Positions 33,907 through 38,814 of a DNA stretch of 38,814 nt are shown here, piece by piece. Where the stretch lies: the NCBI GenBank assembly GCA_017883315.1, contig JADGNW010000121.1, positions 1 to 38,814 of the forward strand, given 5' to 3'. This DNA comes from Blastocatellia bacterium (lineage in GTDB: Bacteria > Acidobacteriota > Blastocatellia > UBA7656). The notes beneath the pieces were generated by a model, which did not search any database, was not told where the DNA came from, and worked only from the letters and a program-made list of their open reading frames with translations. The stretch's first letter is position 1; each line of letters begins with the position of its first letter. Position numbers and translations under genes: made by a program.

Positions 33907-35238
33907 ATGGCTAACACGCCTGATCTGGGTACTTGCCTTGCCACTGACGACGGACTCAGCGAGTTGCTGCCGCTCAGTCCCTTCAAAGCCTTGCACTATC
34001 ACTTCGGCATGCTGCTGGGCGTGGACGATTTTGAAACTGAGCAGGCTTACCACCGCGCCAAGATGCGGCTGCACAACGCCTGGCTGCATCGCGAGGGAGT
34101 CGTTTGGGGCTTCGGCGTAAAGCTCGATACGGACCACGGCGAGATTCGCGTGACGCCAGGACTCGCGCTCGATGCGGCGGGTCACGAGTTGCACCTCGAA
34201 GGTGAGGCTTGTCTCAATCTTGGAGAGTGGTTCGACAAGCACCAGCAAGACCCCGGCTTCACGGTCACAACTACAAATGGCAACACGGCGTTCAACGCGC
34301 ACGTGGTGATTCGCTTCAAGGCTTGTTTGACGCGGCAAGTCCCGGCGCTGATGGAACCGTGCGACAACGCCGGAACAGGCACCGCGTACTCGCGCGTCTG
34401 CGAGACCGTGGAGATTCTATTGCTGCCCAATCAGGCCCCCGCGCGCGTCTATCCCTATCACCGACTGCGTTTGATGTTCGGCCTGGACGAGCCGAGGCTG
34501 AAAGAAAACTCAACCGACAGCACGCCGGAAGATCAAGCGGTGCTCGATGAAGTCAAAAACATTCAAGCGCTGCCCGCCGCACAGCAGCCTGCCGCGTGGC
34601 TCGCAGCCTTTCATCGCTTTGCCGCGCTCGATGAGATCGACCTGCGGCCCGCGATCAGCGAAGACGGCGCGCGGATCCTGTTCTTCCCCGGTAGAGATGA
34701 TGACCCGGTTGTTCTGGCTGACATCACCGGCATCATGCTCACCAGGCAAAACAATGGTTGGGTGGTGAGCGGCGGCGCGGTTGACACTTCAGTCAGACCG
34801 TCGCACGTAGCGACTACGACCATTCAAGACCTTCTCTATCGTCCAATCCTCGCCGCGTCCGAAACGGGAGCAGAAGACATCGGGCCGCGCGTCGTGCCGG
34901 GCTCCGTCCTGCTGCTGACGTCGACGGCCATCGAGTTTCGCGTGGACAGGGAACTACACGACGCCAGCGTCAAGCCTGCTGCCTTCTGCGTCACCTGGTT
35001 CGATCCGGCAACAGGCTGGCATAAGGCCAATATCCGCACCGCCTCATATGGCGGCGGCGAGACGTTGACCGTCAACCTAGAACTGAAGAGTCCCGTCCAT
35101 GGTAGGGTGCGTCTGATCGTCTACGGGACCGGCCCGGAACCGCTGCTCGGACTCAACCTCGTTCCATTCGCGGGCGCTGCGGGTGGGCCTCCGGGGACTC
35201 CACACAACGGGCACGACTTCGCTTACGTTCTAACTTGA
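33907..35238 (+). CDS. Unknown protein, paralogue A of a CIS-linked family (shared N-terminal domain)
   Basis: 443 aa from the ATG at 33907, with an AAGGAG SD. The first ~230 aa or so align with the start of the 1128-aa protein (LHYHFGMLLGVDDFETEQAYH...GVVWGFGVKL...IRVTPGLALDAAGHEL versus LNYFDGKFLRAADLQTEQEYL...GVARGFDLTL...LNIGAGLAIDPGGRVL). The C-terminus looks like a beta-sandwich. Confidence 0.75.
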   Translation: MANTPDLGTCLATDDGLSELLPLSPFKALHYHFGMLLGVDDFETEQAYHRAKMRLHNAWLHREGVVWGFGVKLDTDHGEIRVTPGLALDAAGHELHLEGEACLNLGEWFDKHQQDPGFTVTTTNGNTAFNAHVVIRFKACLTRQVPALMEPCDNAGTGTAYSRVCETVEILLLPNQAPARVYPYHRLRLMFGLDEPRLKENSTDSTPEDQAVLDEVKNIQALPAAQQPAAWLAAFHRFAALDEIDLRPAISEDGARILFFPGRDDDPVVLADITGIMLTRQNNGWVVSGGAVDTSVRPSHVATTTIQDLLYRPILAASETGAEDIGPRVVPGSVLLLTSTAIEFRVDRELHDASVKPAAFCVTWFDPATGWHKANIRTASYGGGETLTVNLELKSPVHGRVRLIVYGTGPEPLLGLNLVPFAGAAGGPPGTPHNGHDFAYVLT

Positions 35239-35254
35239 AGAGGAAGGAACTGAC

Positions 35255-38400: not shown

Positions 38401-38814
38401 GTCGGCGACGTGTCCTTCGATCAGGGGACGGCTACGGTAGCCGGCAACAGCCTCGCGCCAGTTGTAAACACCTTGAAGACGCAGGGTGGGATTCCCGTGG
38501 CCGCGCTGGTCGTCTCAGGATCCGGTGACTCCGCTGCGAACGTAGCGGCCCACAAAGCTCAAGCAGAAGCGATAATGAGTGCGCTCGGGCCATCGACGAT
38601 CACAGTGGATGCGGTTAGTATCCCGGTGCCTTCACTGGTAGGTTGCCCCGCGATTACGTTCATTCAGTTTTCCTCGAGTGCAGTTGTAGCCGACAAACCA
38701 GCGCAGCAGGTATTACCGAAGGCCGACATCCCGGCGGCGACGAATAAAACAACGAAGGCAAAGACAAACACGGGCCGAGCAAAGCCCGCCGCGCGACGCA
38801 AGCGAAAGAAGTAA
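35428..38814 (+). CDS. Large unknown protein, paralogue B (1128 aa), with a beta-rich Thr/Ser/Gly/Val middle and a strongly basic C-terminal tail
   Basis: AAGGAGAGG SD. The N-terminal domain is shared with paralogue A. The central region is rich in short beta-type segments (VTAPGASAVTGQLSVVGVAILKTGTTPTTT...). The protein ends TKAKTNTGRAKPAARRKRKK, with the stop at 38812-38814 (window end). Confidence 0.8.
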   Translation: MPTIDSSETLVLVSQQNGLVIIPSSTPLTRLNYFDGKFLRAADLQTEQEYLRQLVEQSNQASGSGVARGFDLTLGSGDTLNIGAGLAIDPGGRVLLLPQSVTLNTQELIDKSRELQASLARPISAAAGGFETCEPTSTTPPANLIPASDLYLIVLSQAEALCGEEDVFGKLCEEACTTSTDRPFLLEGVIVRAIPLVLGTPLPTSTAVPLTATHLRSRVASAYFEDERRVIASLISRAGLALQTWCLGANPAAGNGVPIGVLARAGATTVFLDAWTARRELINTGAERYWRWRMMMRPWDVFLAQILQFQCQLRDLFRSTPVPAGDVAPCGGALGAVNEAAAAVTELQQFYESTTTRFADLRVPIDDSMTFAGGSTRLAALGTRLAGVSQALAAAPRDSVLINGGIVELPSAGYLPVVPGAGATINQQVHQLMGDGVDLRFCVVRPDYVAHALEEAQHMERISLVYGLDHPGDKPRVDILVPDGTILEVARAGLRNGFETQLTLLPLLGGLLNPTFTEARAVIQPSQVFHGVTRMAVLPDGGGAMYSAGFIPASQFIFDQISVFEIGAAAAQERAIVRSPGPTFGYWLELNSDKNVFAMSQNEVSSVSGRAIIAETASSGSVFVDLRVWGQFRVTAPGASAVTGQLSVVGVAILKTGTTPTTTQAKSLNLVTRVALSSPIAGGSRVGVTVQAVSGTDVFFSAEWGKDPITANGGVTTSGSSTVAATSELHPNPDVYQVTNARHGQAISGLQVVGSALADAGFVNTASNLLFPPLPPASDELIVRGTRDWVLFHRRRTKQCAVEVKAPPMPPPRQYAVYHLALTDDGGKLSSQLAEVKAWLNGGDVSAPPFVPVVDVEFQGGVASLISDPAAIRTDWSAKNPGNTLLYGAIASTPAAAAEGDDLASSRLAQIEMVVSSSSPPAATIVSELLPAVPRSPVVAGPDGVIVLVTARPVPVCHTVARMIDGASIGRINKGSTSGDLATISNKLANKVGDVSFDQGTATVAGNSLAPVVNTLKTQGGIPVAALVVSGSGDSAANVAAHKAQAEAIMSALGPSTITVDAVSIPVPSLVGCPAITFIQFSSSAVVADKPAQQVLPKADIPAATNKTTKAKTNTGRAKPAARRKRKK

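Follow-up and report, generated by a model that had tools for sequence, protein, structure and literature searches.

The 38,814-bp window analyzed here (positions 1 to 38,814 of contig JADGNW010000121.1, assembly GCA_017883315.1, from a Blastocatellia bacterium; GC fraction ~0.6) was shown to encode a complete contractile injection system (CIS) operon at 12424–32448 on the forward strand, followed by the genes for a 474-aa protein and for two proteins of 443 and 1128 aa, here termed A and B (Table 1). The two open reading frames (ORFs) of A and B were confirmed as given in the initial annotation, which had been made from the sequence alone and had read the two products as proteins with a common N-terminal module. 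Both are annotated as ‘hypothetical protein’, and their relatives either as ‘hypothetical’ or, for some B homologues, as ‘DUF11 domain-containing’. The closest named relatives of both were found in metagenome-assembled genomes (MAGs) of Acidobacteriota, Pyrinomonadaceae and Blastocatellia. In the following, the common N-terminal domain, its relation to known baseplate and fibre proteins and the gene neighborhood are described, and the possible roles of the pair are weighed.

Homology and extent of the shared N-terminal domain

A BLASTP comparison of A with B showed a single significant segment (A11–114/B13–114, 30% identity, E = 4e-9). Run on both families (109 and 120 homologues), hhalign gave E = 1e-9 over residues 1–114, and with more diverse, cleaned sets A14–120 was aligned to B15–120 at E = 1e-12 and a probability of 97.8%. 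When 33 N-termini drawn from the two families were aligned together, 16 columns were invariant, including (A numbering) P25, Y31, G34, L37, D41, Q46, G64, G68, G85, D89, and G92. The domain has the motif L-x-Y-x-x-G-x-x-L-x-x-x-D-x-x-x-E-Q-x-Y, which is reminiscent of the N-terminus of TssK (see below). As judged by these alignments, the N-terminal domains of A and B are homologous over ~105 residues, and the paralogy suggested in the initial annotation passed the check for statistical significance. The size of ~230 aa suggested there for the shared domain was too large: past residue ~120 no significant similarity was found by BLASTP or hhalign, and a greedy alignment (mact 0.01) had no confidence in this part. 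The C-terminal parts thus proved unrelated, as had been claimed.

A longer extension (hhalign E = 2e-31 over A12–299/B13–289), obtained with length-selected ‘diverse’ sets, was discarded. It was an artefact, because two truncated B-like proteins (P0362 and P0404) were present in the set of A sequences; these contaminants came to light when C-terminal profiles specific to each family were run with hmmsearch, as did the chimeric protein P0456 in the B set. After removal of the three sequences the alignment was confined to residues 14–120. In P0456 (932 aa) the N-domain lies at residues 195–305 and not at the N-terminus, and the protein is matched by the downstream profiles specific to A and to B alike; a fusion or an error in gene calling may be the cause.

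AlphaFold2 (AF2) models of A and B (pLDDT 81.6 and 73.9, respectively) showed a matching order of elements in the N-domain, with B at lower confidence. In both, a long helix comes first (A45–61; B41–60), followed by six short strands at identical positions (65–104), a helix from residue 105, a first long strand (A126–141/B150–161) and, after a low-confidence loop, a second one (A164–174/B185–195). From these models, a common fold to about A174/B195 is plausible. The loop between the long strands (A140–165, 34324–34401; B162–183, 35911–35976) was modeled with very low confidence. It contains most of the family-invariant cysteines (A C140 and C152; B C133, C162, C172, and C176), for which a role in disulfides, in a metal site or in an interface ordered only upon assembly is conceivable. 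Of the two-Cys segment described in the initial annotation, the cysteines as such stood, being invariant in the families and lying at the same place in the predicted element order.

The domain family is large. Of 1.84 billion cluster representatives, 11,695 matched at E ≤ 1e-3 and 4,291 at E ≤ 1e-10. In nearly all of the 150 matches listed, the start of the domain falls in the N-terminal ~35 residues, and the lengths of the proteins cluster at ~430–520 and 1000–1470 aa. A third large homology search, with the N-domain profile, yielded almost only short fragments and added nothing.

Beyond the shared core, A was found to be conserved throughout, with 0.44–0.83 identity to its homologues (787 in total) along the entire length. 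In the AF2 model, the helix 45–61 and a beta-sandwich (65–174) have pLDDT values of 83–95, except for the loop 141–165 (below 50), and are followed by a helical neck (185–245), a hairpin (268–293), a helix (301–316) and an immunoglobulin (Ig)-like head (335–442). The top PDB matches of this model in Foldseek were S-layer Ig domains, aligned to the C-terminal head and not to the N-domain. A Pfam scan (E ≤ 10) of 81 A homologues detected Ig-like repeats only, with SWM_repeat in 30 and Big_5 in 6 of them, and gave no match to TssK (T6SS_VasE) or DUF6519 (eBAP5). A is predicted to be a short, TssK-sized fibre or baseplate-periphery protein.

In B, for which 891 homologues were found, the N-terminal 480 aa are conserved; a beta-rich middle that varies comes next, then C-terminal domains of the alpha/beta type and finally a basic tail (AARRKRKK). 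Its identity to homologues falls from 0.48–0.75 (residues 1–480) to 0.16–0.25 (481–720) and 0.09–0.19 (961–1128), and many homologues have different C-termini, e.g., DUF11 repeats. The only PHROG match in either protein was a weak one (E = 0.01) in the middle of B. This pattern among orthologues, a constant N-terminus with a variable middle and C-terminus, resembles that of receptor-binding proteins (RBPs) as far as sequence conservation can tell, and B is predicted to be a long fibre-type protein. Compared to its two closest relatives (P0122 and P0123), B lacks a domain of ~150 aa, which falls between ‘CPAITFI.F’ and the K/R-rich tail ...AKPAARRKRKK (38590–38814, residues ~1055–1128). The basic tail itself is kept in the closest B relatives and is unusual for a fibre tip.

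Similarity to CIS13, TssK, phage and eCIS fibre anchors

No match to the shared domain was found in Pfam or PHROGs. The NCBIfam model CIS13_fam (NF053767) matched both proteins: A26–238 on model positions 4–195 of 392 (E = 1.2e-10, 41.2 bits) and B30–102 on positions 6–83 (E = 6e-6, 25.7 bits). All 10 other family members tested also matched the N-terminal part of the model only (23–42 bits), and the scores of A, B and these ten relatives all stay below the 370 bits required of an equivalog, those of A and B by far. Accordingly, it is the N-terminal part of the model to which the domain corresponds, and none of the proteins is a CIS13 equivalog. The Anabaena Cis13 protein is trimeric and fibre-like and binds the baseplate by its N-terminal domains (PMC8894136). 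While Cis13 of the Anabaena thylakoid-anchored CIS (tCIS; All3316, PDB 7B5H) is likely to resemble A and B in the N-terminal model positions aligned, it differs in having a transmembrane helix, which is absent from A and B, and in contacting Cis11. No sequence match of A or B to any 7B5H chain was found.

Neither A, B nor the profile of the A family retrieved anything usable from PDB by sequence, and none of the proteins or profiles matched chains of Photorhabdus PVC or Serratia AFP there. With the N-domain profile, TssK, from a type VI secretion system (T6SS), ranked fourth (5Y0E residues 10–52, E = 0.43, below significance). By hhalign against a set of eight tssK genes taken from plasmid records, N-domain residues 29–75 were aligned to TssK 7–52 (P = 7e-4 to 2.4e-3) with a score of 28.6 (highest score among 40 controls with shuffled columns, 19.4), and the register was identical with A-only and B-only profiles. 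In this register the TssK motif W-x-EG-M-F-L-R-P-H-H-F-Q-Q faces hydrophobic-x-x-G-x-x-L-x-x-x-[DH]-[FL]-x-x-[EQ]-x-Y of the N-domain. Foldseek with the A model detected TssK chains (5m30_B, E = 2.4e-3; 5y0e_A, E = 6e-3; also 5mwn_A and 6giy_G), a baseplate chain of the Anabaena CIS (7b5h_AB, E = 2.5e-2) and, in a viral library, entries for tail fibres and for a ‘Receptor Binding Protein sandwich domain’ (E = 8.5e-4 to 1e-2). The lines of evidence are individually weak but all concordant, which suggests from sequence and models that the domain is TssK-like and RBP-shoulder-like.

A further resembles TssK (5M30, 5Y0E, 5MWN, 6GIY) in size (443 vs. ~445 aa) and in its predicted layout, in which a shoulder beta-sandwich is followed by a helical neck and then by a head at the C-terminus, and the putative partner is likewise a TssG-like protein. 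This architecture at TssK size was predicted for A only; B greatly exceeds TssK in length and does not resemble it past the first ~120–195 aa, and the TssJLM genes are missing here. The shoulder domains of siphophage and myophage RBPs, which appear similar by the viral-library matches of the A model, differ in that TM-scores were low, sequence similarity was absent and the context is a CIS and not a phage.

Five N-terminal eCIS (extracellular CIS) Baseplate Anchor Protein (eBAP) domains were recently described (Nachmias, Wang, Feng, Jiang & Levy, Nat Commun 2026; bioRxiv 2025; PMC12923769). According to this source, eBAP3 is a shoulders-like, TssK-like domain of ~200 aa present in 1420 genes and typical of Tail_P2_I loci, with attachment through Tail_P2_I loops predicted by AlphaFold-multimer and a comparison made with PDB 6N38; several fibre genes occur in 23.4% of loci, and in one locus there are three eBAP3 fibres that differ in architecture (PMC12923769). 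Its tables contain a single Nitrococcus eCIS cluster (genome 638341135, cluster 2733), of which two genes in succession (639002323 and 639002324) are entered as eBAP3 in Supplementary Data 5. In the Nitrococcus mobilis locus compared below, the only domain-bearing genes were one orthologous to A (full-length identity 53%, E = 2e-133) and one orthologous to B (42% identity, E = 5e-225), and the listed genes are most likely these orthologues. The A/B domain is then most likely of the eBAP3 type, as far as the listing goes, and the statement in the initial annotation that the domain could not be assigned to a named family is outdated by this naming.

Like the published eBAP3 fibres, A and B are otherwise differing proteins that begin with a common, putatively shoulders-like anchor, in a Tail_P2_I locus with more than one fibre gene. 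They differ in that the sequence-supported core is ~105 aa and not ~200, and in that they follow an ATPase and a coiled-coil gene, whereas the published fibres come directly after the baseplate genes in ~90% (PMC12923769). By analogy, A and B may occupy the same slot as Afp13/Pvc13 of Serratia AFP and Photorhabdus PVC, that of a trimeric fibre which is attached to the baseplate and determines the target, its N-terminal anchor being constant and its distal parts exchangeable. Afp13/Pvc13 differ in having their own helical eBAP1 anchor of ~50 aa on Afp12 and an adenovirus-like beta-spiral shaft (PMC12923769), neither of which was seen in the AF2 models of A and B.

Gene neighborhood in the window and in related loci

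The CIS operon of the window contains, in this order, genes for a Pvc16_N cap, two sheath and two gp19-type tube proteins, CIS_tube, a gpD hub, a gpV spike, a 555-aa protein without assignment, gp25, Baseplate_J, Tail_P2_I, a 511-aa protein likewise without assignment and an AAA+ ATPase. Downstream of the ATPase follow the 474-aa protein, A and B. Family scans detected no capsid or DNA-packaging genes in the window, and T6SS TssJLM membrane-complex genes were found neither in the window nor in the related loci.

Table 1. Coordinates of A, B, their shared domain and neighboring features in the 38,814-bp window.
Feature	Coordinates	Strand	Basis or remark
Baseplate_J (Afp11/TssF-like) wedge protein	24497..26644	+	Pfam PF04865, E = 7.7e-13
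Tail_P2_I (TssG-like) baseplate wedge protein	26648..28900	+	Pfam PF09684, E = 2.3e-8
AAA+ ATPase (Afp15-like)	30415..32448	+	Pfam AAA, E = 1e-25, plus WHD
474-aa alanine-rich helical/coiled-coil protein	32463..33887	+	Between ATPase and A
Protein A, 443 aa	33907..35238	+	ORF; ATG 8 nt after ribosome-binding site GAAGGAGA
Shared N-terminal anchor-domain core in A, residues 14–120	33946..34266	+	hhalign, BLASTP, CIS13_fam match
A–B gap, 189 nt	35239..35427	+	Decayed duplicate of B ribosome-binding site, start and first ~30 codons (ATGCCGACGAACAGTTCAGAATAG...)
Protein B, 1128 aa	35428..38814	+	ORF; stop codon at last base of contig
Shared N-terminal anchor-domain core in B, residues 15–120	35470..35787	+	BLASTP, hhalign, CIS13_fam

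The window was compared to six related loci from several phyla: L001 (a 2.5-Mb Acidobacteriota-like contig), L002/L003 (Nitrococcus mobilis), L004/L005 (a Bryobacteraceae MAG), L014, L015, and L016. All seven were shown to have the same order of Tail_P2_I, a protein of ~480–520 aa without assignment, the AAA ATPase (at an identical position throughout), a protein of ~440–520 aa, an A-type and a B-type protein, with Baseplate_J 5′ of Tail_P2_I wherever the fetched flank reaches. The baseplate is thus of the Tail_P2_I eCIS class in all of them, as in eBAP3 loci, and homologues of the domain were linked to a CIS in every locus examined. The A-type/B-type pair is intact in the window, L001, L002, and L004; the contig of L015 ends inside B, and gene calls are fragmented or truncated in L014 and L016. 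An hmmsearch of six-frame ORFs with the N-domain profile (window, L001, L002/L003, L004/L005) detected exactly two adjacent carriers per locus. The initial annotation had considered A and B as interchangeable modules; they are instead a conserved, co-occurring pair in every locus examined and not alternatives to each other.

Genes containing PF13699 (eCIS_core, DUF4157) were found 3′ of B in five of the six relatives, all but L015 (e.g., L001 15362–21386, L002 13732–16923, L004 14707–16680, L016 13478–15454). One to four such genes follow B, some of them fused to Het-C, PG_binding_1 or OmpA. As the contig of the window stops exactly at the stop codon of B, the cargo of this system is cut off.

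The 474-aa protein between the ATPase and A showed no match to Pfam, NCBIfam or PHROG families. Counterparts of 443–522 aa are present in the same slot in L001, L002, L004, L015, and L016, where the gene is intact, and the gene is fragmented in L014; the protein could be a tape-measure protein, a chaperone or a fibre-assembly factor.

The A–B gap contains a frame-broken copy of the start of B, with a second ribosome-binding site and ATG. It is 84% identical to the gap in L001 (L001 11387–11564), where the duplication is unmistakable (alignment score of gap vs. B start 69, shuffles 16 ± 2.4); in the window the score (20 vs. 15 ± 2.1) is not significant alone. Neither a terminator-like site nor an RNA fold of unusual stability (z = +1.0) was found in the gap. 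The copy may be the remnant of a third fibre gene that was lost or exchanged.

Other features of the window were observed as well. The 555-aa protein (22437–24104), located between gpV spike and gp25, had no family match and contains a strongly hydrophobic segment at residues 427–445 (KD19 = 2.45; VFKLFLPVVTLLFGLFFLL), which is unexpected in a spike/baseplate slot. The second sheath ORF (16256–18397) and the second tube ORF (18300–18905) overlap by ~100 nt when the first possible start codons are used; the second tube gene probably starts later, because the gp19 domain begins at residue 42. Upstream of the operon, lepA (EF4; 3847–5649) contains an in-frame TAG at 4450–4452, within ‘ALIFDS*FDSY’. 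E. coli LepA has Trp at this site (TGG to TAG). The stop reflects either an error of sequencing or assembly or the decay of lepA to a pseudogene.

Proposed role of the A/B pair

We consider it quite probable that A and B are paralogous, baseplate-attached eCIS fibre proteins that share a TssK-like shoulder anchor, most likely of the eBAP3 type. This interpretation is carried by homologous N-domains, a gene pair that is conserved and linked to CIS loci, the position of the effector genes in the relatives and the predicted TssK-like layout of A. It agrees with one of the two possibilities raised in the initial annotation, receptor-binding proteins with a shared baseplate-docking domain, to which the CIS13, TssK and RBP matches and the published Nitrococcus eBAP3 pair now point. 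[quoted passage not shown] The unrelated C-terminal parts would face outward and contact the target surface, in A with the helical neck and the Ig-like head and in B with a large helical module, the variable beta-rich region, the alpha/beta domains and the basic tail. Both would be present on one particle as a fixed pair and would not be exchanged for each other, and the cargo would be DUF4157/eCIS_core proteins encoded further downstream, past the contig end.

Several observations weigh against this interpretation. The conservation of A over its whole length is unlike that of a fast-evolving receptor binder. The assignment to eBAP3 runs via the Nitrococcus orthologues, for which the correspondence of listed gene IDs and coordinates was inferred. 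The hhalign probability for TssK was just 12–27%, and Pfam PF05936 (T6SS_VasE) had no match in A or B (E ≤ 0.1). The Foldseek TM-scores of the A model were low (~0.2), because whole multidomain models were compared. For the full-length B model Foldseek gave insignificant beta-barrel matches only, and the confidence of its N-domain is moderate.

The first of these points would be accounted for if A were a constant structural equivalent of TssK and B alone the target-binding fibre, with the two bound to different Tail_P2_I loops or with B supported by A. We regard such a division of labor as possible, at a clearly lower probability than that of two fibres. A has the size and the shoulder/neck/head layout of TssK and is conserved even in its gammaproteobacterial orthologue, B has variable regions and swapped C-termini, and the pair is fixed in all loci examined. 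In the T6SS, two TssK trimers bind two TssG loops, which provides a precedent. On the other hand, A ends in an Ig-like head, a typical adhesion module, with SWM_repeat and Big_5 in its homologues, and the published catalogue, in its listing, gives both Nitrococcus genes simply as fibres. A further step would be that A is a genuine TssK orthologue kept in an eCIS, that A and B occupy the Tail_P2_I loops heterotypically and that the copy in the gap reflects turnover of fibre cassettes; as a joint reading this seems doubtful to us. With a similarly small likelihood, each wedge would carry a short constant trimer and a long variable fibre, and recombination would take place within the anchor-domain sequence. 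If the TssK-orthologue reading were true, the baseplate periphery would be intermediate between T6SS and phage or eCIS.

That A and/or B tether the baseplate to the envelope of the producing cell, making this a cell-bound rather than an extracellular CIS, is unlikely. Both CIS13 and TssK, to which the N-domain is related, are anchoring proteins, and judged from its composition the basic tail of B could bind membranes. Neither protein has a transmembrane segment, however (maximum KD19 1.09 in A and 1.71 in B, the latter in a predicted beta-strand), a Pvc16_N cap, CIS_tube and DUF4157 effectors, all hallmarks of an eCIS, are present in the loci, and the window has no T6SS membrane-complex genes.

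The other possibility raised in the initial annotation, that A and B are interchangeable payloads with a shared N-terminal domain for loading into the tube or onto the spike, was not borne out and is very improbable. The location after the ATPase is a frequent effector site, and a common N-terminal module would suit such a function. However, the matches of the domain are to a family of structural proteins (CIS13) and to the shoulders of TssK and RBPs and not to a packing signal, and no DUF4157/eCIS_core, toxin or enzyme domain was detected in A or B (Pfam, NCBIfam, PHROG). The genes carrying the eCIS_core marker lie directly after B in relatives, the pair is strictly conserved across phyla, unlike variable effector cassettes, and B, with 1128 aa in multiple folded domains, would probably be too large for the tube lumen. 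A chance or compositional resemblance of the two N-termini, to which the identity of just ~30% over a stretch of only ~105 aa might point, is refuted by the BLASTP and hhalign E-values, in line with the 16 invariant columns and the same predicted order of secondary structure, and its probability is negligible.

The notion of a constant N-terminal module with variable C-terminal modules was correct in substance and matches a principle that is already known, since constant anchors with variable fibre bodies, several per locus, were published in 2025/2026. No new cargo-loading principle is revealed by A and B. Modestly new may be the fixed short-plus-long pair, which was not seen singled out in the available parts of that publication, and the position after the ATPase and the coiled-coil gene; no Acidobacteria names were found in its supplementary tables as available. 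If correct, our interpretation means that this Acidobacteriota-like contig carries a standard Tail_P2_I-type eCIS, in which targeting would be carried out by a conserved pair of anchor-domain proteins and the effectors would be encoded just past the contig end. It would be useful for the annotation of two hypothetical genes and of a large domain family, and would offer a concrete case for how two different trimers share one TssG-like adaptor.

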